A stretch of 57,218 nucleotides of DNA from Nemertoderma westbladi (GCA_032718475.1 JAUCBJ010005185.1:1-57218), one strand, 5' to 3'. Positions 1 through 51,853 are shown, counted from the stretch's first letter. The notes: generated by a model from the sequence alone, not told the origin. Numbers and translations: made by a program.

Positions 1-1349
1 CATAACGCGGGTTACATATTTTTCGATTTCTTAATTAATGAATGTGCCAATATCGATGGGGGGCACGGGAACAAAAAATTTGGGCACATTTAATAAACTG
101 GGGGCGATTTACGGGCGAAACTTGGGGGGACTTACGGGACGCGGGATACATTTCAGATATATAAGGGCCATGGGTGGGGGGTAAAATCAAGCAATACTCT
201 CGGCTGTCAGGGTTGCCTGATAGTTACTATAGGCCTAGACAGCCTCCTTCTACTTCGGTAGTCGGTAACCCACTAGGTCTGGGGACAAGGACTGCCCTTA
301 GCGGTCCCTGGCCATTGGTGGCGACTGAGCCTGAAAAGGACTCGGGCGTTGCTCGATGTGCTAGGGATTTGCGACGGGACCGACAGATCCTAACCGGTTC
401 CCGGTGTGTTGGCTACGACTGAGCCTGAAAAGGACTCAGGCGGAGTTTTTGCATTGGGGACTTGCGAAGGATCGACTGACAGGTCTGGAATGGTTCCTGG
501 TTGTTGGCGACGACTGAGCCTGAAAGGGACTCGGGCGCCATTCGATAAACCGGGGATTTGTGAAGGGCCGATGACCGGACGGAAAGGAAGGGTTCAACGA
601 GGACTGACACCCTGGCGTGGGCTCCACGACTGGCGTTAGTATGAGCCTGAAAAGGACTCAGAAAGCTCCGATGGTTGGGGCTCACAACAGGCAGACAGAC
701 CCTTAGCTAAGCCGTACCGCTTTCCTGTGGACCGATCCCGTTAGGGTTCGGGAAGGGTGGGACGGACATGCGACAGGGTCGAAAGACAGAGGACCGGACT
801 TTCCTGGCATACCAACTATTCGGAGCGGGTTCTCGACTACTAACGTGATTACGAGCCTGAAAAGGACTCGGAAAGCATAGGTAGTTGGGACCCTGCGACG
901 AACCGACAGAAACCCTAGCTAAGCCGCGCCGCTTTCCTAATGACTGACCCATATGGGATCAGAAAGGGTGGAGTGGACAAGCAAAGGATCGACTGACGCT
1001 AACACTACTGTACCGGGACTCAGGACCGAGGGAAAATGGGGAACATTAGTTAGGTCAAAATCTGAAAGTTAAGCGAACAGTGGGGTAATTAAATAATTTA
1101 CTGTAGGAATTTCATATTGTGTATTATTGTGAATATTTGGTATATTGATGTGGGGAAGCCCCAATTATATCTCAATCAGAGTGCAACAGTTCAAACTGTA
1201 GATCAGAGTTCAAAGTTTAGAGTGCAATATTTCAGGTTGCTACTATTAAAGATTAATATCCAACCAATGAAACTCTTTTCTACCCGCAACTCTGCATTTA
1301 AGATCTCCCCCTTCTCCACCCAAACCCCAAACCAAACTCAACCCAAACA
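1..1349 (+). repeat. 5' LTR (first ~21 bp lie outside the window)
   Basis: 1-~1320 aligns to 12339-~13392. Ends in ...AAACA at 1349, just before the PBS-like sequence. The exact 3' end is less certain because the last ~30 bp do not match the 3' LTR. Confidence 0.85.
327..869 (+). repeat. Cluster of five GAGCCTGAAAAGGACTC hairpin motifs in degenerate ~95-bp and ~210-bp LTR sub-repeats
   Basis: Cores start at 327, 421, 516, 643 and 853. Segments 643-780 and 853-980 are similar to each other. Confidence 0.9.
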
Positions 1350-1359
1350 GTCTAGAACT

Positions 1360-1372
1360 CGTAGTCGGCAGG
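1360..1372 (+). promoter_or_regulatory. Primer binding site, tRNA-Ser-like
   Basis: CGTAGTCGGCAGG is complementary to the 3' end of eukaryotic tRNA-Ser (...CCTGCCGACTACG-CCA) and lies 11 bp after the LTR end. Confidence 0.7.
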
Positions 1373-1399
1373 TCATTAGAAGAGAGTCGTTGGCAGGGA

Positions 1400-1591
1400 A
1401 TGGAAGTATCGATCACACCCATTGATCTAATACAAGTCGAACCAGGAATCTGGCAGATAGAAGTTGAGGTACAGGGAACCAACGTGGGATGATTTAGAAT
1501 CACCTTCCGAGTGGTTCAGGCAGAATACGAGACATACGACGAGCTATTTTATGATATTGCATACCTGGCGATATATGAAGCTCTAGAATGA
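1400..1591 (+). pseudogene. Small upstream ORF (~63 codons, one internal TGA) overlapping the gag ATG
   Basis: Hand translation: MEVSITPIDLIQVEPGIWQIEVEVQGTNVG*FRITFRVVQAEYETYDELFYDIAYLAIYEALE*. The stop and the next start overlap as ATGA at 1588-1591. Confidence 0.4.
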
Positions 1592-3850
1592 TAGAGGAGA
1601 ACGCCTACGATACTGAAGGAATAGACCCTCATACAGACTCAGAAACCAACGAGGTCCCGAATGTAAAGAACATGGCAGGTCGGTTGGGTGCTCTCAAGGG
1701 CGGGGTTACTCGGGCCTATAACCACATCGAGAAACAGCTAAAAGGAGTCGAGGCCCCCCTCAGTGATATACAAACTCAGCTCCAGAAGATCAGGAATACT
1801 CTCCACCGATATGAACGGATGTTGCAATCGTACCAGGAGCTCCTTTCCATTAACCGATGAAGAGAACTACCCCAGGATGGAAGAACACACCACCCACTTG
1901 GAAGAGTTCCATAAACAACATCGAAGGACCCTCAGCCTCGTGAGAGGTTATGAGGAACATTTTTATCAGAGGATCGAAAAGGCGGATGTGGAATCAGTGC
2001 GGACCTCCGGTACCAGGACATTGGTTCCAAGAAAAAGGACTGGGTCCTCGAGGCACGCGCACTCCAGCGCCAGGAGCAAGGTATCTTCAACAATGTGTAG
2101 CTCCCAAGGGGGCCAGCTCCTCCGGGACCAGTTACAGGAACAGAGAGCAAGGGCCATTAAAGCCCGGATGGAAGATGAATTCACTCAATTACAGATCAAA
2201 CAGGATATATTGGTGGAAGGAAGGCGTAAACAGGAGGCCGAACAGCAGGCCGAAATGCGTAAACAGGAGGCCGAAATGCGTCAACAAGATACCGAGGCCC
2301 ATAGACTTCTTATCCACAAAAAGAACGCGGATATTGCTAAACTTGCTGAATATGAGGCCGCACTCATCGAACGAGAACTTCAACTGTGCGAGGACTGGGA
2401 GAAGGGTATAGCACAGGACTATGAACCTGTCCCGGTTCTGGAGCTAGAGAAGTCGTTCACACCACTGGCAGTAAACCCTCCGAAACCCGAATTCCCGCCG
2501 GTCATGCGGTCTAAACTGTCGGCGCAAGCACCGGTTTTCTACCCCCCGCCGGTTACTCTTAAGAATGAGGAACCCGAAGCGACACATGACAGCCTTCGGT
2601 ACGAGCATGAAAAGGACTCGGGAAAAGGTCTCTCATTACCGGAACCTTATTTCACTTCCAATCCTACAGCACCGAGTGTTCACAAGTATGAGCCTGAAAA
2701 GGACTCGGAACGTGACACCACCCCTCGATCCACTAACTCATTTACGTCTACTCCGAAGCTCCGTAACTGCGTCGTTATTAAAACTCCCCCTCTTGCCGAT
2801 CCATCATATGTGGGAGAAAGCGTTAGTAATTACGGACCTCCTAGTCATTCCGGTTCAGACGACATTGGCATCATACGAGCCCTGGAGAATGGTCTGGCTA
2901 TGCTTAAGATGGAAATACGTACCTTCGAGGGCGACCCCATTGAATACCTTGGGTTTAAAAAACGGTTTTTTGCTCAAATCGGATCGACGGACATTACCAA
3001 CGCGCAAAAGCTGGTATATTTGTCCCAGTATCTTGGCGACAAACCACGCCGCATTGTGAGATGTTTTGAAGGAGGATCCCACGAGGCATACCACGATGCA
3101 TGGAAAACGCTCAATAAAAGATATGGCAACGTCGGAACCATAATTAATAAGACGCCTGGATCTCTAGGGGATCCACAGAATATTCAAGAGTTTTCAGACT
3201 CAATGAAAGATGCTTATTATACTCTAAAACCATTGAATAAGGAAGAACAGGTGAATAATATCTTAAATCTCCGACAAATCGCCCAGAAATTTCCTGGATG
3301 GCTATATAGTAAATGGGCATACAAATGTGTGGACCTCCGGCGAAGACATCCGGATCGTGATCCTAGCTTTCTCGAAATGTCGGCATTCCTAGACGATATA
3401 TCAGAGGCCATGAATGACTCAATGTTTTCTAAACAAAGTCTCTCCAAAATGGATGGGATGGAGAGCACTTCTCGGAGCAGGGCACCCGCTCCAAAACCAA
3501 GATTCCGCCCTCCCCCTGTGAGTACGATGGCCATTACCATGGCCGAGGAGTCGGACGATGAGGATTACAAGGAACCAACATCAGCAGAAGAATGGGCATG
3601 CTATTTGGAAAATTGGGCGCCCGAGAGGGAAGGAACAATGGCCTCCCTTATGTGTCTCTTCTGCAGGGATAAGCATAAGCTTGAATTCTGCAGGAAGTTC
3701 CAGTTTGCAGAACTAGTCTCTCACTTTGAAGCGATAATGAAACACCGAGGATGCTTCCGGTGTCTTGGAACAGGTCACTACGTAAGGGAGTGCAAACTGA
3801 GGTCCTGATATGCGGTTTGTAATGATTACGACACCACACGCTCCTCCACA
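1588..3850 (+). pseudogene. gag: BEL/Pao Gag (coiled coil, DUF1759-like core, three zinc knuckles), frameshifted
   Basis: ORFs 1588-1860 and 1763-3808. Motifs TFEGDPIEY, KLVYLSQYL, AWKTLNKRYG; knuckles CLFCRDKHKLEFC, CFRCLGTGHYVREC and a frameshifted CAVC...HHTLLH. Confidence 0.9.
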
Positions 3851-4039
3851 TTCCTGCAAACTTCGACTTTACTACATTACCATTCCGTATTGAATCTAAG
3901 CGGAAAGGGGAAACTAACCATGTCTCAAAGGGCTCTCGGACGATCCAGCGGAAAGAAACGAACCCGTTCAAGGCCACTGCTGACATAGCACCTGTGAACA
4001 GTATATCAGCTACTGTCAACCTGATCAATCGGCGGTATA

Positions 4040-4530
4040 TGGTTTTCTCCAAAGTGATACCGGTGAGAATCTAAGGCTTGGGAAATCCCTGACCGCACTT
4101 GCATTCTTGGATAATGGGTCAGACGGGACCATAATTGACAGGGACTTTCTGGAACATCTGGGCCTAGAATATGAACCTTGTAAACGACCCATACAAACTA
4201 TTACGGACCACAAAGATGTGGAATCCGGCGAGGTGCAACTCAGCGTGGAAGGGGTCATGACGGGCTATGAAAGGGTGAAACTGACCATGAAAAACGCCCT
4301 GGTACACACCGATCTCAGAGTGCGATTCCGACAATCCTCCGAATACGCACCCCTTATACAACTGGATCGGAAGGATATGGACCTAAGATGCCTATCACTA
4401 GACGTCCACAGAATCACACTACCTATAGGACTCGATACACCAGAGTTACATATACCTACTGGAGACATTGCACGTTCCATGAAGCTGGACGATGGTTTCT
4501 ACGCAGAGCGCACCATAATGGGATGGATGC
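4040..4530 (+). pseudogene. pol: Aspartic protease domain of pol
   Basis: ALAFLDNGSDGTII active-site motif; downstream LPIGLD and AERTIMGWML motifs are typical of Pao proteases. Confidence 0.85.
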
Positions 4531-4676
4531 TCTGCGGGATTAAGGAAGAAACCACTGATACCTATACATACCTCCCAAAGTGTCAGATTGAAGGAACCAC
4601 AACCTCCATGGGCCACTGGTCAGTGGCAGATACGAATGAAGACCTATTCTTGGAGGCAGAGAAGACCTAACGGGAG

Positions 4677-5690
4677 ATGACAAAATACTTTAACCTGGAA
4701 ACCCAGGAATTCGCCGAAAAGGCTGAAACCCCATCGGAGGAGGACCGATTTAGCGTGGGCATCCTAGACAAGGCAGTATTTAAGGACGGTCATTGGTGCT
4801 CGCCAATGCTATGGAAAGATCCGGACAGACCAATGGCCAACAATGCTAGTATGGCCTTGAGGAGGCTAAAAGGAATCTTGCATAGGTTGCATGAGCTACC
4901 TGAGGTCAAGGAGAAATATAACAATGTGATTAAGGGATACCTTGAAGATGGGTTAGCGGAGATGGTTCCCCAGGACGAATTGCAGGGGACGAAGAGAACC
5001 TACTATCTTCCTACCCACTACGTGGTAGAGGCCCGGAAGGGCAGTAAGATCCGGGTGGTGAATGACGCTGCAGCCACGTATCAAGGTGAGTCGTTGAATA
5101 GTCAGCTATATACCGGACCCAACATACAGCATGCTAATCGGCGTATTGATCCGATTCCGAGAGAACAAAGTGGCTTTCACATGTGACATCAAGGCAATGT
5201 TTCACCAGGTGAGAACTTTACCACGAGACTCTGATTGCCTCCGTATTCTATGGACAGACAAAACATTAACTCCAAGAAATAAACCAACTTACCTTGGCGG
5301 ATGTGGACGCGATGCGGATGATCGTCCATATTTTTGGTGCGAAGGATTCGCCGGTCGTGTATAGCGACATGTTGAAGAAGACTGCGACCATGTGCGAAAG
5401 TGAGTTCCATCCGACTGTCATCGAGACCATCCGGAGATGTTTCTATGTGGACGACGGATGTGCGGGTGCCGAGAATGTCGAAGAAGCATACCGGCTCGCA
5501 ATCGGAATGGTGGAATGTTTAAAGAGGGGAGGTTTCCCCCTAGTAAAGTTTAGATCGGATAATAAAGAGCTTATGGAAAGGCTCCCGGAAGATATCAAAT
5601 TAGATAATGATAAAATGTACTCCGACGGAATAGACCACCGTGTACTCGGCATTGAATGGGACATAAAAATGGACCAGTTCATCTTCAAAC
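4677..5690 (+). pseudogene. pol: Reverse transcriptase domain of pol, frameshifted
   Basis: [33 protein letters not shown]...[21 protein letters not shown] (5441-5455) and VLGIEWD, spread across three frames. Confidence 0.95.
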
Positions 5691-5755
5691 ACAACCCCCT
5701 ACCTAAACCAATGACAAAGAACCCCTCTTTGTCATTGGTTTGGGTAGGGGGGTGT
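5691..5755. repeat. Fold-back inverted duplication disrupting pol
   Basis: 5695-5720 is the reverse complement of 5726-5751 (one T/G mismatch), with a 5-nt spacer. Confidence 0.9.
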
Positions 5756-5779
5756 CATTGGTCTATTCGTGAAGAGTGC

Positions 5780-6470
5780 CATCTTTGACCCTTTGAATTT
5801 CATATCCCCGGTAACGTTAGCCGGGATGAATCTAATTAAGGAAATGTGGATCGAAGGACTGGGGTGCGATGAAGAACTCCCCCCACACCTAATCGTCAAA
5901 TGGAAGAGGTGAACTGAGCAGCTTGAACAGCTCCATCTCAGGCGAATTCCTCGACCGTTTTTTCTCGATAAACTGCCCACTGACATATTCCAGCTCCATA
6001 CCTTCTTGGATGCCTCGAATACTGGAATCGGAGTGGTTATGTACATCCGGAGGATAAGCCAAGATGGAAACGGTGATGTTAGCTTCTTGTTCTCTAAAGC
6101 GAAGAAGGTATCCGGGGAATTCGTGGCAACCATACCGAGGCCCGAGCTGCAGGCCACAGTCTGGGCCGTAAGACAAAACCGCATGATTATGCGAAACCTG
6201 AGGATCCCCATTGAATCTCAACATTTCAGGGTCGATTCCAGCATAGTGCTCTACTACCTCCATTCACCATCACGACGACACACAACGTTCGTGGCAAACT
6301 GTGCCACAGAGATAAAGCAGTGCACTAATCACGAACAGTGGCGTCACGTAAACGGGAAAGAGAACCCGGCAGACTTATCGAGTCGAGGCGCCACCCCACG
6401 ACAGATCGGTAAAAGTAAACTCTGGCTTGCGGGTCCGGAGTTCTTGAGACATCCGCAATGGACCTGGAGC
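5780..6470 (+). pseudogene. pol: Pao-type RNase H region of pol
   Basis: IFDPL, LHTFLDASNTGIG, TIPRPELQA, FRVDSSIVL, WRHVNGKENPADLSSRG, LWLAGPEFL. Confidence 0.9.
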
Positions 6471-6889
6471 ACCAGGTTTGATCCCGGATTAGAAAGCGGG
6501 AAATACTTGGAGGACGATAAGGAAATCCGCAAGGTCCGTGGGAGCGCCGCCGTGGAGATTTATAGTTGCCTGACTGAGCCTGCAAGTGTCTCGGGCAGGC
6601 ACTATAAGGTCGCAACCACCAAACAACCGGCCGCCTCCTTACGACTCCTCATAGAGCGGACCCCCTCGATGAAACGTCTCATTCATCACGTCATGACGCT
6701 CCGGAATTTCGTGCGGTGGAAGGATAACAAACTGATAGTTCAGCGGAGTGTGCAAGAACTCATTATCGCAGAAAAATGTATTGTAAGATATGTTCAGAAG
6801 GAAAGTTTCCCTGATGAGTGGGAACAGCTCAATGCGGGCAAGACTTTGAAACCAGATAGCCCGGTCTACCAGTTGAGACCCATGTTGGG

Positions 6890-8183
6890 AGAGGACGGAT
6901 TGATCCGCCTTAATACCCAGATGGTGAATGCCAAGGTTGAATATGAAATAAAATATCCGGCGCTCTTACCAGGAACTTCGACATTAGCTAAGCTGCTTGT
7001 TCGACAATGCCATGAAGAGAATTATCACGCGGGCTAAAACTGGATCATGGCCAATATACGTCCACGATACTGGATCACCCATATCCAGCCGCTAATTCAG
7101 AAAGTATTGAAATGGTGCTTCCCTTGTAGGAGATATCTGTCACCACCACTCACCCAAAGAATGGCCGATTTACTGGCCACACGACTCCAATCCGACTCGC
7201 CGCCGTTCTACGTAACTGGCGTAGACTGCTTCGGGCCATTTACAGTCATACAGCGACGATCAAACATTAAATGTTGGGGGGCCATCTTCACATGTCTACG
7301 GCCAAGGGTGAACTACCTGGATCTTGTAGTGAATCTCACTCAGCACGCATTTATCAACGCCCTGCGTCGGTTTGTGGCGAATAATGGTTGGTGCCGGCAC
7401 ATATACTCGGACAATGGAACAAACTTCGTGGGAGGAGAAAGGGAATTAAGAGAGGCTATAGACGGATGGTTCACTAACGAAACCGCGTCACACGTCTGGA
7501 AGGAGCACCACATCCAGTGGCACTTCCAGACACCCTTAGCACCCCATACGAGCGGGGTATGGGAAAAGCACATTGACTTGGTTAAACGGTCCATGCGTAT
7601 CGCGTTAGGGGATACCCGGGTTACTCACAATACCTTACGCACCACATTCTGTGAGATCACGGCTACCCTAAACAACCGCCCAATAGTCCCCATATGTGAC
7701 GACCCTACCAATCTGGAGCCCCTCACCCCCAACCATCGCCTTGGTAGACCCAAGACTCACATACTCCCGGGGGCCATGTTCCCGGATCCCAAAGACACCA
7801 CGAAACATGCAAGTTGGAAGAAAGCCCAAGCGCTGGCAGCGCATTGGTAGAGAATTTGGGCACAGGAGTATCTTATAATGCTTCGAACAAGGAGGAAATG
7901 GAATAACACGTACCGGAATATAGCAGTTGGCAACATGGTACTCGTCAAAGAAGACCTTAAAGACCGCGTTCACTGGCCTGTGGCATGTGTTGTGGAAATA
8001 TTCCCTATCAAAGATGGACTTGCGAGAACGGTGACAATACGAATGGCAAAGGGCCACTACCAACGCCCTATCCAGAGGTTTTGCCTTCTTGAAGGCAATG
8101 ACAGCGGTGAGTCCACAAGAGGTGATACGTTCCCTACTCTGGATCCTGCTGCGGACATTGGTGACAATAACAAACCCGTTTAA
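6890..8183 (+). pseudogene. pol: Integrase (HHCC, DDE core, C-terminal DUF5641-like region), with internal stops
   Basis: CHEENYHAG...CFPC, GVDCFGPF, IYSDNGTNFVG, GVWE, LNNRP, LTPNH, WPVACVVEIFPIKDGLARTV. Confidence 0.95.
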
Positions 8184-8440
8184 CCCTTCCCATCCTGTTG
8201 ACAAACTCTTTAAATGTGACTTACCGACAATGATTATGGACCCCCCTTAAACCAACTGTAACCACGCATGGTATTTGTGTTTCCTTGTGTGTTATGTGGA
8301 GTCCAGCGTCACCCTGCAGATGTTTCGACTGATGCAGGGTAGTTTTTGTTTTGTTCACCCTGATTTTGGTCATCAGGACCAACTACCATGGATTATCGGA
8401 AATGGGAAAGTTTCGAAGTGGAATTCATTGTATCCATTGC

Positions 8441-9195
8441 GTTATTCTGGTGGGTCCCTTGTGCATTCCACATGACTTCGTCGATAGAGACTTTATGTTC
8501 CTCAGCCACGTTAATCTGGTGGGTCCCTGGTGCATTCCACCTGACTTCGTTGGCTAGCTTTATGTTTCTGGGAGTGTTATTCTGGTGGGTCCCTGGTGCA
8601 TTCCACCTGACTTCACTTCCAGCGTTCTATTCATCATCCGTTATGTGTGCAGTTTGGGGCGTAGGCGGTATAACGAGTCCAGCTGTAGATCCCAGACTGC
8701 CGCGTAACACCCCTTCCACAACGAAGAATTCCCAAGAAGATGGTCGAAAGTAGTACGAAATGATGAAAGGAAACAGATAACTCTACTATAAACTGAATGA
8801 TGACGCTACTATTATGATGATGATAATGTGAAAATGCGCATCCCTGGTGTCTTGCACTTATAACTGAATGGTGGCACGTAATATTATGATAATGTGATAA
8901 TGCGCATCCCTGGTGTCTTGCACTTATAACCCAATAATGATAGCCGGGGGGCTATAAACCCAATGAAATGATGAAATAAATGATGAAATGATGAAATAAA
9001 TGATGAAATGTGAAATAAATGATGAAATGCTAGTGTGAAATAAATGAAATGAAATGAAATTTGAAATGAATAAACTGTATAAATGAAAAAGAAAAAAAAA
9101 AGGTATAAAATGTAGAAAAGAAAAAGAAGAAATAAAATGGGATAAAAAAGTTAAAAAAGAAATGGTCATAAAAAGTAAAAAACAAGAAAAAACTG
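8441..9195 (+). repeat. Repeat-rich spacer between pol and the extra ORF
   Basis: Three copies of GTTATTCTGGTGGGTCCCTGGTGCATTCCACCTGACTTC (8441, 8510, 8576). Two ~68-bp copies ending ATGCGCATCCCTGGTGTCTTGCACTTATAAC (~8790-8930). A TGAAA/TGA run (8963-9070) and an A-rich tract follow. Confidence 0.85.
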
Positions 9196-9388
9196 GTTGG
9201 GTAATAATGGATTGCTATAGTAACTGTGAATGTTGAACTTAGCGTCAATCAGATGACAGATACCTATACAGCAGTATAATATCACCTATATTAAATAACA
9301 GAAGAAAAAATTCTGCAGTTACTATAGAATTCAGACTATCTAGATTTATAATTAACTGAATTAATTTGTAACGGACGTAATTTACAAT

Positions 9389-12023
9389 ATGGACCAGAAT
9401 CGCCAGATTTTCAGCAAATTACCTACAACAATCGATTTATTGGACTATCCACAACCTGGATCTCCTAGTTTTGATGTGAAATGGAACGCCCTGTTGAATG
9501 AGAATGTGCAAGTCATTCGTTTCTCTGGGAGGGAGGCCCCGGATACCCGTAACTTGCAGGCGCTCCGGTTGACTGACGCTAGTACAAGCCTGAAAAGGAC
9601 TCGGAACGCTGAGGCAACCGGAGGAGGAAAGTTGTCATTCTGGAATACGTTCCGGCGAAGCATTTACAAATCCCGGTGCTTAATATATGACAACGAGGGC
9701 AATGCGACGCCGACTCTGAAGGCGGTTATAATGGCGCGATGTCAGAGTTTCATCGACGATAAGAGTACATATCTCGCACACTGGGGAAACCTGGCGGAAT
9801 GTACAGAGATGCTGCGAGAGGACCGAATGACAGCCATCCAAAATCAGGATGACTATAAAGAAAAATACGGGACGAAAGAGTACGGTCGGTCGCTAATCGT
9901 TGTACTCGGAACCCTGGACGGGTTGGTAATAGTGTGTCGAATCTTTCCAACACCCCAACAGGAAATACGGACAGCCGGGGTGATCTGGTTACTACCGACA
10001 GTGATCCAGAAGATCCTGTTCGACATTGATATAATCAAAATCGGGTCAGATATAAAAGCGGACCTCCGAAACGACTACATCAACGCTCCATTCGGAAGGA
10101 ACCGTAGAGAGGACATCAGCACGATCAGCCACTTCATCGACACCCAAACCCTGCTGGCCTGGTTACGGGTCACGGATTTTATGGGAGGGTTTAGAGAGGT
10201 GAGACGGACCAAATCCGGTATCGGCTACCTAGCGGTACTAAATGGCGGTTTAGATTTTAAACCACAAAAGTTCCCGGACTACAATAAAATCTACGACTTG
10301 CATCTGGATTTAGCGATACGTCATGAGTGGGAAAACCGTTGGAGGGATGTAGAAAGGAAATGGACGATCCACCAACGCTGGAATAATCCGGAGTGACGGA
10401 ACTACATCTATGTAACGATGGAGTCGTACAGGGTCACTAAGTTTATCTGCAATACCCTCAATAAGCTTATTAGCGCAGTCCGAAACGCTTTCATAGATTA
10501 TGAATGGAACGAGGTGATCGAGCAAGCATTCAAGGCGGTACAGAATATCCCACCAGGGGATACCAAGACGCTTGAAATAATCGAGGCCTGGGATCTGAAT
10601 GGACCGTTCGATATCCCAACGATCAACGACCGCCTTGGCGCCGAGGAACCTATAGTGTCGTCGGAAGGAGAGGAGCTATGGAAACACGAAGGTGTCCTGT
10701 TATCCACACCGAAATGCCAACACGAACCAGAAGTTACCTATGGATCAGCTGCTAAGTGGATAGCCACGACTGAGCCTGTGATGGACTCGGGCGTAGCTAC
10801 TCTGCTTGGCTCGGGTAGTACGGCGAGGGAATTGGTTACCACTCTCGCGCTCAGCGACTTCGATTATACATGCAGGGTGTTATCTCCTTACCCGTTCCCT
10901 GGAGGAGATGACTGGTCCACGGAAACTCCGAGCACCAGTACCCAGTGGACCCGGTCGGCAATCCAAGTGACGAAGGGACCTAGTATACCACCGACCCCCG
11001 GGAACCTCCTCAGGATTACTTCGGCGAATGTTCCGGCATCCTTTCGCCAACCAGCTATTCCACATGACCCGATGAGGTTCACCTGATGGTACGCTGAACA
11101 GATGGAGTGGATTCACCGTCAGAAATGGGCACCCGAAATGCATCCAGCGGACCATAAGGAGGGATACCGCAGCGAGGCCCAACTCCACGACAGCGCGGCG
11201 TACCGCGGGCTTCCTATAATAACAATTATTCCCAAGAAGGATAAACGGTTGGAATATTACACTGGCGTGCAAATTCCAATCTTCTTCGGTCAAGAAATGA
11301 AACTCGATGTCTGCAGTAGTTGTGGTTCGGAAGGAACAGTGTCCTCGAGGTAAGAAACAAAGAGTAACCGAGCCCTGTTTCCAAATCCTCGGGATAGTAT
11401 ATTGCCCATATTGCGCCATCCCGGGCCATGATGTATCGGTTTGCCCAACATCGTACAATGTATGTACAACATGCGGATTCCGTGGGCATACGGCGAGCCC
11501 TCGGTGCAATATTAAATGTCCTTCTAAGGATGTTACAGCTACTGGGAACATGGTAATGTTCGAGACGTACACCAATGTCCACATAAAGACCAGAGTGCGA
11601 TTGAGCGATCGAAATGTTGCACAGGAGATGGCGTGCGGGTATTTCTCATTCCCCGAACGTCTCCATATGGGAGAGGCTTTACCCTTCCACTACGTGGATC
11701 TCCTACTTATCGCCAATCTATTCGGTCCATTCGAGGTGATTAGGCGTCTATACTCGTATACGGAAGCGTTTGGAGATGGAGAATGGTTCCAGACAGCTCG
11801 AGCCACCGAGCTAGAAAGGAGAACGGATCTCATCACGATACCTCAATGAGGAATGGCTGCCAGGAGGCAGGCGGCGGCGCTTCTCGCATCAGCCAATGAC
11901 GCCCCACTACCCGCATTGGCGTTAAACGAAAGTCGATGGGCGAAGAAAAGGAAAGCATATCAAAGTAGGAGATTAAACGATAAAACAAAGGAAGGACTGT
12001 CAGACACAGGTATGAAAAAATAG
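9389..12023 (+). pseudogene. Accessory ORF: DEDDy/WRN-Mut7-EXD-like 3'-5' exonuclease-fold domain plus CCHC zinc knuckles
   Basis: ORFs starting at 9389, 10418 and 11102 share one frame and are separated only by TGA stops. One frameshift near 11335 leads to ORF 11307-11849, and the frame stays open past another TGA. Motifs LPTVIQKILFDIDIIKIGSDIKADL, FIDTQTL, GIGYLA, CPYCAIPGHDVSVC, CTTCGFRGHTASPRC. Confidence 0.7.
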
Positions 12024-12084
12024 TAGGTAATTATATTTTTTCATACCTGTGGCTGACAGTCCTTCCTTTGTTTTATCGTTTAAT
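11972..12084. repeat. Inverted repeat with 51-bp arms and an 11-nt loop
   Basis: 11972-12022 is the reverse complement of 12034-12084 with one mismatch. AAAGTAGGAGAT direct repeats lie at 11962 and 12122. Confidence 0.92.
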
Positions 12085-12309
12085 ATTTACTCGCCACATT
12101 CCCCAACATGAATTTTAATTTAAAGTAGGAGATGAAAGACCATGACATTTATAGACATTTATTCAAACATTATATTTTATATATATATGTACGTAAACTG
12201 ACTCTAGGACAAATTAATCATGGACTATGCAATAACACAAAATTAGTTTTGTATGGGGAAATGACCTTACGCAAACTCGATCTACCGATAGACCTCACGA
12301 AGGTCATTT

Positions 12310-12317
12310 GGGGGGAC
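12310..12317 (+). promoter_or_regulatory. Polypurine tract
   Basis: GGGGGGA(C) lies immediately before the TGTT start of the 3' LTR. Confidence 0.65.
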
Positions 12318-13486
12318 TGTTCGCGTTATTTTAATTATCATAATGCGAGTTACATATTTTTCGATTTCTTATTTTATGAATGTGCCAATATCGATGGGGG
12401 GCATGGGAACAAAAAATTGGGCACATTTAATAAACTGGGGGTGATTTACGGGCGAAACTTGGGGGGACTTATGGGACGCGGGATACATTTCAGATATTTA
12501 AGGGCCATGGGTGGGGGGTAAAATCAAGCAATACTCTCGGCTGTCAGGGTTGCTGATAGTTACTTTAGACCTAGACAACGCTAGCCTGAAACGGACTCGG
12601 GCGCCGTTCGATAAACCGGGGATTTGTGAAGGGCCGATGACCAGATGGAAAGGAAGGGTTCAACGAGGACTGACTTCCTGGCGTGGGCTCCATGACTGGC
12701 GTTAGTACGAGCCTGAAAAGGACTCGGAAAGCTCCGATGGTTGGGGCTCACAATGGGCTGACAGACCCTTAGCTAAGCCGTACCGCTTTCCTGAGGACTG
12801 ATCCTGTTAGGGTTCGGGAAGGGTGGGACGGACATGCGATAGGGTCGAAAGACAGAGGACCGAACTTTACTGGCATACCGACTATTCGGAGCGGGTTCTC
12901 GACTACTAACGTGATTACGAGCCTGAAAAGGACTTGGAAAGCATAGGTAGTTGGGACCCTGCGACGAACCGACAGAATCCCTAGCTAAGCTGTGCCGCTT
13001 TCCTAATGACTGAACCGTATGGGATCAGGAAGGGTGGAGCGGGCAAAGGATCGACCGACGCTGACACTACTGTACCGGGACTAGTACCGAGGGAAAATTG
13101 GAAACATTAGTTAGGTCAAAATCTGAAAGTTAAGCGAACAGTGGGGTAATTAAATAATTTACTGTAGGAATTTCATATTGTGTATTATTGTGAATATTTG
13201 GTATATTGGTGTGGGGAAGCCCAAATTATTCTCAATCAGAGTGCAACAGAGTGTAACAGAGTTCCAACTGCAGATCAGAGTTCAAAGTTTAGAGTGCAAT
13301 ATTTCAGGTTACTACTATTAAAGATTAATATCCAACCAATGAAACTCTTTTCTACCCGCAACTCTGCATTAAAGATAACGTCCTTCTCCACTCCCAATAA
13401 CCAGTGACTGGCCGGAATATAGTGGTCTGAAAGTTCCGCCTCCAGCATTGGCGTTTTCCCCCCTGGTGTCGGGAATAACGGCAACA
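12318..13486 (+). repeat. 3' LTR
   Basis: Starts TGTTCGCGTTATT and ends AATAACGGCAACA (11/13 terminal inverted match). The body aligns with the 5' LTR, and (TAT)n flank follows. Confidence 0.88.
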
Positions 13487-51466: not shown

Positions 51467-51853
51467 TAATAAAGGAAGGATGAAATGATCTTTAGGTGCC
51501 GCTGTAATTATATTATAAATGCCAAATATTTCAACCCAAAATTGTAAATGTGGACAATTACAATTAAACAGGCCTTCTTCAGTGGCTCTGGTACCTAATG
51601 TACCTAACTACAGAAACCCTACAACACGACCGGACCGAGCAACAGCAGAACAAATAGTCCTAGTCTTTGTTCTGCTGTTGCTCGGTCCGGTCGTGTTGTA
51701 GGGTTTCTGTAGTTAGGTACATTAGGTACCAGAGCCACTGAAGAAGGCCTGTTTATTTGTAATTGTCCACATTTACAATTTTGGGTTGAAATATTTGGCA
51801 TTTATAATATAATTACAGCGGCACCTAAAGATCATTTCATCCTTCCTTTATTA
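51467..51853. repeat. Near-perfect palindrome with 188-bp arms and an 11-bp spacer
   Basis: 51467-51654 is the reverse complement of 51666-51853, with one mismatch seen. This produces the mirror ORFs 51519+ and 51801-. Confidence 0.97.

Follow-up and report, generated by a model that had tools for sequence, protein, structure and literature searches.

What does a BEL/Pao retrotransposon carry between pol and its 3' LTR when the gene found there does not look like env? The question is raised by a 57,218-nt sequence from Nemertoderma westbladi (the whole stretch analysed, hereafter the window), the first 13.4 kb of which are a decayed BEL/Pao LTR retrotransposon with a long third open reading frame (ORF3). 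For BEL/Pao elements, the available text of two papers describes env as the only extra ORF (PMC3118150, PMC13524379). The assignment of the element is based on Pfam matches in its broken pieces (DUF1759, E 3e-11; Peptidase_A17, E 2e-15; DUF5641, E 4e-23) and on the domain order DUF1759, Asp_protease_2, Peptidase_A17, DUF5641, flanked by LTRs, which is that of BEL/Pao. The reverse transcriptase gave no Pfam match in the broken pieces scanned, and its motifs were read by eye. Of 1036 sites aligned between the two LTRs, 52 (5.0%) differ, corresponding to ∼2.5% decay per LTR since insertion. Just 3' of the 5' LTR, the sequence CGTAGTCGGCAGG (window 1359-1375) resembles a serine-tRNA primer-binding site. 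The element is laid out as follows:

1-1345, + strand: 5' LTR; its first ∼20 nt lie upstream of the window, its 3' end is approximate, and it holds five copies of a 17-nt motif
1672-3808, + strand: gag, broken, with DUF1759 and zinc knuckles; start approximate
3984-8183, + strand: pol, encoding protease, RT, Pao RNase H/Peptidase_A17, integrase and DUF5641 and interrupted by stops and frameshifts; start approximate, stop codon at 8181-8183
9389-12023, + strand: ORF3, non-env accessory gene, from ATG at 9389 to TAG at 12021-12023; 2635 nt, 878 codons of DNA
12310-12317, + strand: polypurine tract GGGGGGAC, assigned by its position directly before the 3' LTR
12318-13391, + strand: 3' LTR; similarity to the 5' LTR stops at 13391, and ∼270 nt present in the 5' LTR are missing

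Two minor features were seen in the upstream genes. A weak match to PAM2, the PABP-interacting motif, lies in gag at 2475-2550 (E 0.03, below the Pfam cut-off). In pol, a 35-bp inverted repeat at 5686-5760, the second arm of which lies where the pol frame is broken, is likely a copy-specific inverted duplication.

The first-pass annotation had described an ORF of about 870 codons between pol and the polypurine tract, interrupted by three TGA stops and one frameshift, and all of these are present. The stops lie at 10394, 11084 and 11847, the frame change falls between ∼11330 and 11400 and breaks the first CCHC knuckle, and the ORF ends ∼290 nt before the GGGGGGAC tract. The whole ORF3 protein cannot be made by this copy. 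Its description as a non-env gene also held, with no fusogen or glycoprotein family among the Pfam matches of the five pieces scanned and no C-terminal hydrophobic anchor in a hydropathy scan (best value at most 1.36 after aa 336). The accompanying statement that no transmembrane helix is evident stands in its conclusion and not in its wording: the same scan reveals a hydrophobic 19-residue stretch (aa 168-186, mean hydropathy 2.13), which corresponds in the alignment to the nuclease fold's beta-2/beta-3 hairpin and is therefore read as not transmembrane. One further structure overlaps the end of the gene:

11972-12084, no strand assigned: near-perfect 51-bp inverted repeat that spans the stop codon of ORF3

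The arms of this repeat are 98% complementary and the predicted RNA fold is very stable (-81.4 kcal/mol, z -16); it may give rise to small RNAs or be a duplication made by template switching in this copy alone. Rfam searches with two long inverted repeats returned matches to miRNA precursors below threshold only.

The element family is multi-copy. Other copies were sampled through Logan contigs aligned to the element, which came from four of six runs and at most three samples (X1-X3), one of which (X1) may be the window's own source. The presence of ORF3 in other copies, on which the original claim depended, was borne out: contigs from the three samples cover it in all four runs, with 77-100% identity among the pieces listed. 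Matches in the most distant sample are similar for the two genes (83% and 77% in one contig over ORF3, 79% and 84% in another over pol), and ORF3 is thus about as conserved as pol. Within 9700-10460, the 40 variable sites listed (of 193) comprise 26 third, 11 first and 3 second codon positions, a third-position excess (p 4e-5 against an expectation of one third). Because the listed sites were chosen by support, share common ancestry and are no random sample of the 193, this bias is taken as a sign of purifying selection and not as a dN/dS estimate. Only three indels, one of them in frame, occur among the listed ORF3 variants. The codon of the first stop (10394) reads otherwise in 100%, 95% and 98% of contig depth in X1, X2 and X3 (12, 12 and 8 contigs), contig depth not being the same as copy number. 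None of the contigs listed bridges pol and ORF3, and the linkage of the two genes in other copies is thus one that we infer. A recent nested insertion is made less likely by the two copies of the element's 17-nt motif that lie inside ORF3.

The 1.2-kb spacer between pol and ORF3 (8183-9389) contains tandem repeats (42-nt x3, 53-nt x2, 19-nt x4) and an A-rich tract. The highest contig depth of the element is found at 8100-9000, so this region may be common to other families or derivatives.

A single intact relative provides the main handle on the protein. When the ORF3 N-terminal piece was compared with 1.84e9 proteins using HMMER, the sole match was a protein of 648 aa, here P0001 (E 2.6e-5; 28% identity over 137 columns), with a score of 63.9 bits against 25.4 for the best of 300 shuffles. 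The ORF3 knuckle piece matches the P0001 C-terminus as well (34% over 114 columns, pairwise E 4e-10), and this second match is independent because the knuckle piece was absent from the original query. The two proteins have a common layout, consisting of a nuclease-like domain, a long variable linker, three CCHC knuckles and a conserved tail. The C-terminal part of this layout maps onto ORF3 as follows:

11312-11507, + strand: three CCHC-type knuckles, the first (11312) broken by the frameshift and two whole, at 11403-11444 and 11463-11507
11637-11705, + strand: conserved C-terminal motif of unknown family, GYFSFP...ALPFHYVDLL, shared with P0001 and 3' of the knuckles

Two clear knuckles and a broken third were thus found as first reported, the broken one being the first in order. 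One of the three has the exact C-x2-C-x4-H-x4-C spacing, one has x5 before the last Cys, and one is broken. The P0001 knuckles match HIV nucleocapsid (E 1e-4), and the Pfam knuckle match is weak (E 0.21).

Wider searches returned no further members. P0001 as a query matched only itself among 7989 candidates, and its cluster has one member, encoded on a 9449-bp contig; the ORF3 N-terminal piece matched none of 3291 candidates among longer proteins, and a two-row exonuclease profile matched none of 1378 candidates at E 10. Searched against 201 proteobacterial genomes, the two-row profile gave six matches (E 0.08-0.8), and the four inspected looked spurious. A tblastn search of phages and plasmids gave three matches (E 6-10), one of which was inspected and had no matching ORF family. 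No related loci were found in the viral contigs, metagenome contigs and prokaryote genomes scanned.

The N-terminal part of ORF3 is the region for which an exonuclease-like identity had been proposed:

9680-10460, + strand: putative DEDDy (WRN/EXD-type) exonuclease-like domain

This domain very probably adopts a DEDDy fold of the WRN/EXD type. The assignment is based on P0001, language-model neighbours and motif register, three lines that are transitive and concordant. The motifs named in the first-pass annotation (the ExoII region, FIDTQ, GIGYLA...LDFKP and W...YVTME) are all found, in that order. ExoI and ExoII align in register in all three alignment modes, one of them with beta-2 shifted, and ExoIII was placed by eye. 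Searches of Pfam, NCBIfam and PDB sequences with the domain gave no significant match, and nothing significant was found in PHROGs/NCBIfam. In the ESM Atlas, 25 of 30 matches of the domain fall in the PF01612 set (Werner-like exonucleases; best 0.93) and the best match of P0001 is a PF01612 plus zf-CCHC cluster (0.86, a lead only), at shared-feature counts of 167 and 163, which are under the Atlas guide value of 170. PF01612 is also one of two Pfam matches of P0001, a weak one (E 0.2).

Profile comparisons point in the same direction through P0001. A WRN-type profile was assembled from 26 of 30 bacterial loci, with a seed that has human WRN as a match at E 6e-14. P0001 aligns to this profile in register with a score of 26.6, compared with 13.6 ± 2.6 for shuffles (best 20.6, n=60). 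The ORF3 piece alone scores 18.5, below the best shuffle (19.4), and the ORF3 and P0001 pair reaches 25.7, barely above the best shuffle (24.7). The AlphaFold2 models (pLDDT 30 and 36.5) are unusable and uninformative on the fold, as are the fold searches run on the second model. The first bacterial profile that was built (33 of 40 loci) represents NrnC rather than the WRN type and was set aside, all three queries scoring no better than shuffles against it.

The catalytic positions of the domain are read as follows:

9830-9847, + strand: ExoI position, TAIQNQ, so placed in 3 of 3 alignment modes; both acidic positions are occupied by Gln
10052-10066, + strand: ExoII, IKADL, Asp kept
10409-10423, + strand: ExoIII position, YVTME, a YxxxE like the YIYCE of P0001; placed by eye, automatic alignments being off register here

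MTAIQNQ aligns on the VLGFDTE/ILSIDVE column in all three modes, and in two of them the loop from MTAIQNQ to the next strand has 14 residues, the same as in WRN-type proteins. The placement of ExoIII by eye follows the pattern W..P...YxxxE, found in both ORF3 and P0001. P0001 reads SIDVE, KADL and YIYCE in the order ExoI, ExoII, ExoIII, giving D, E, D, E at the four metal positions, where the ORF3 copy has Q, Q, D, E. An active DEDDy exonuclease has four acidic ligands (D, E, D, D) and a Tyr, a set that ORF3 lacks. The ORF3 of this copy is therefore likely a pseudo-nuclease, judging from the Gln residues at both ExoI acids and the Glu in ExoIII. This agrees with the first proposal, which had reached it on the wrong grounds by taking LAECTE as ExoI. 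LAECTE falls in the helix before beta-1, and 94%, 82% and 99% of contig depth has a different codon at its Glu, so that this Glu is not shared by most copies covered and ExoI was misplaced; the ExoI position is TAIQNQ. Another candidate for ExoI, IYDNEG, was rejected, as two of three modes place it on the strand that precedes this helix. The two Gln codons are three substitutions away from an Asp/Glu pair, and ∼0.15 is predicted from decay since insertion, which makes post-insertion decay unlikely; the loss of the ExoI acids likely predates the insertion of this copy. Contig cover dips at 9830-9855, and none of the 40 listed sites is at the ExoI Gln codons.

The 17-nt motif mentioned above, GAGCCTGAAAAGGACTC, occurs in 12 copies at no more than 3 mismatches, where 0.04 are expected, and none of 100 shuffles reaches 12. 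All copies (327-12935) are on the + strand and inside the element, and the other 44 kb of the window have none. The motif is present in both LTRs, gag, pol and ORF3, its reading frame in gag differs from that in ORF3, and a 13th copy with 4 mismatches lies at 6576. The two ORF3 copies are:

9586-9602, + strand: copy of the 17-nt GAAA stem-loop motif
10772-10788, + strand: degenerate copy of the motif, 3 mismatches

The motif is a real cis-element, for which a stem-loop is predicted, with a stem of seven pairs, a bulged A in the 3' strand and a GAAA loop. Among the seven pairs, only the outermost has two-sided changes; three are invariant, and each of the remaining three (two inner, one outer) is disrupted in 2 of 13 copies. 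This near absence of covariation, together with the broken pairs, suggests that conservation may act on the sequence rather than the structure. The motif has no matching Rfam family, and no match was found in the viral contigs scanned or in 2.0 million characters of the PMC3118150 supplements, which are not the whole of the 18-MB element file.

Juno and Vesta are gypsy-type elements. In these rotifer elements, DEDDy ORF3s downstream of pol have already been published, with mut-7, EXD1 and Maelstrom discussed alongside (Rodriguez, Kenefick, Arkhipova 2017, PMC5408684), and the novelty implied by the first-pass annotation was thus overstated. As far as the available text of that paper goes, the ORF3s of bdelloid Juno/Vesta and Athena/Terminons resemble the one described here in being non-env, DEDDy/DnaQ-like and free of coiled-coil and transmembrane segments, and the roles proposed for them likewise concern RNA 3'-end handling or silencing. 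They differ in that they are not from BEL/Pao, have intact catalytic residues (DEED) and are described there with no triple CCHC tail, whereas the present ORF3 is from BEL/Pao, has ∼870 codons, and shows QNQ in ExoI, YxxxE in ExoIII, three knuckles and the C-terminal motif. Protein homology searches with ORF3 or P0001 returned none of the rotifer ORF3 sequences.

Other systems share single aspects of the arrangement. TbRND, the Trypanosoma brucei RNase D (PDB 7c42/7c45), also combines a DEDDy domain with tandem RNA-binding CCHC fingers following it but, in the available text of its report, is an active, cellular mitochondrial enzyme with four fingers and ∼350-380 aa (PMC7797062). It shows no long linker or C-terminal motif like those shared by ORF3 and P0001, and its sequence gives no detectable match to P0001. 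A DEDDy domain is present in Dada DNA transposons too, although, in the part of the source available, it lies inside a DDE transposase and keeps its four catalytic residues (PMC3706591). BEL/Pao env ORF3s (the F-type of Roo, the gB-like type of mosquitoes) likewise lie between pol and the 3' LTR, according to the available text of PMC13524379 and PMC3118150. In contrast, the ORF3 described here has no glycoprotein match or C-terminal anchor and carries a nuclease-like domain and knuckles instead. In Egalitarian and EXD1, as the accessible literature describes them, an exonuclease homology domain binds RNA without catalysis in a setting of transposon-related biology, but both are host genes, Egalitarian acting with LOTUS-like domains and BicD and EXD1 with TDRD12. 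Egalitarian has no knuckle tail and, to our knowledge, EXD1 has none like that of ORF3 either. The word "exonuclease" is absent from both BEL/Pao papers (PMC3118150, PMC13524379), and no BEL/Pao exonuclease ORF3 was found in searches of open-licence papers; an annotation could exist in Repbase, GyDB, Dfam or the element file of the PMC3118150 supplement.

ORF3 is likely, from its sequence, a BEL/Pao, WRN/EXD-type, probably dead and triple-knuckle variant of the kind of accessory gene published for rotifer LTR elements. If this is true, the nuclease-fold ORF3 extends the rotifer finding to another LTR superfamily, involves another DEDDy branch (WRN/EXD rather than RNase D/Rrp6), and adds a likely dead version with nucleocapsid-like knuckles. 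The role of such ORFs, a question since 2017, is sharpened by an apparently active P0001 and an apparently dead ORF3 that share one layout.

Our working explanation, held tentatively and at slightly less than even confidence, is that ORF3 is an accessory gene whose protein, with its knuckles and a probable WRN/EXD fold that likely has a dead active site, binds the RNA of the element itself and coats or caps it. As ORF3 starts 1.2 kb after pol, its protein would likely be made from its own transcript. The knuckles would grip single-stranded RNA as in TbRND, whose CCHC domain supplies RNA binding according to the available text (PMC7797062), and the dead nuclease pocket may hold an RNA end or backbone by analogy with EXD1 and with Egalitarian, for which catalytic residues are reported as dispensable for RNA binding in the accessible part of the source (PMC13186709). 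The benefit would be that the element RNA is protected, transported or packaged. A dead active site with knuckles would suit a counter-silencing decoy, a mimic of EXD1 or Mut-7/Nibbler that binds small RNAs or partners and weakens the silencing of the family. The multi-copy state of the family, the WRN-like and EXD1-like clusters among the Atlas neighbours and the action of EXD1 with TDRD12 in piRNA loading, as given in the available text of PMC4819955, are consistent with such a decoy. We nevertheless consider it doubtful, since ORF3 is too far from any host protein for HMMER detection, shows none of the partner domains Tudor, LOTUS and Lsm in the Pfam searches, and has rotifer DEDDy counterparts with no clear link to copy number or small-RNA escape in the available text of PMC5408684. 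Working family members might instead encode an active 3'-5' exoribonuclease that trims the ends of retroelement RNA or cDNA, with the active site lost in this copy or subfamily. P0001 does keep D-x-E, D and YxxxE, the ExoII Asp codon varies only at the third position among the listed sites, contig cover is thin over ExoI, so other copies differ there, and the rotifer ORF3s keep their catalytic residues in the text available (PMC5408684). This is nonetheless unlikely with both ExoI acids replaced by Gln in a copy only ∼2.5% decayed since insertion, and with Glu rather than Asp at ExoIII in both ORF3 and P0001.

The 17-nt motif invites the reading that ORF3 specifically recognizes the GAAA stem-loop in a Rev/RRE-like export or packaging switch, which, if true, would be a two-part regulatory system in a retrotransposon. 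Its 12 copies, on the + strand and within the element only (0.04 expected), include both LTRs, gag and ORF3, and the predicted stem has a 3'-strand bulge, a feature used by Egalitarian in the available text of PMC13186709. This recognition is quite unlikely, however, given two-sided changes in one of seven pairs, three pairs broken in 2 of 13 copies each, no Rfam family for the motif, and no detected counterpart in ORF3 of the LOTUS-like domains that Egalitarian needs. Gag, the ordinary reader of such RNA signals, carries zinc knuckles of its own. The composite form of the idea, in which a captured WRN/EXD exonuclease, now dead, would be a knuckle-bearing reader of the GAAA stem-loop that shields or routes genomic RNA past small-RNA silencing in a Rev/RRE-like manner, is likewise quite improbable. 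Least probable, at a low level of credence, is a domain that is not DEDDy at all, or an ORF3 that is a passenger without a role for the element. The lack of a significant Pfam or PDB match and the unusable models (pLDDT 30 and 36.5) would fit this, but it is at odds with the in-register motifs and the profile match through P0001, the Atlas neighbours, and the third-position bias and few indels among copies. An RNA-binding accessory protein remains the reading that we favour.

Two repeats lie in the window beyond the element. A 40-bp satellite that has higher-order structure begins 4 kb past it and fills about 30 kb (17240-47500), and a 188-bp inverted repeat, 99% complementary and with an 11-nt spacer, is located at 51467-51853.
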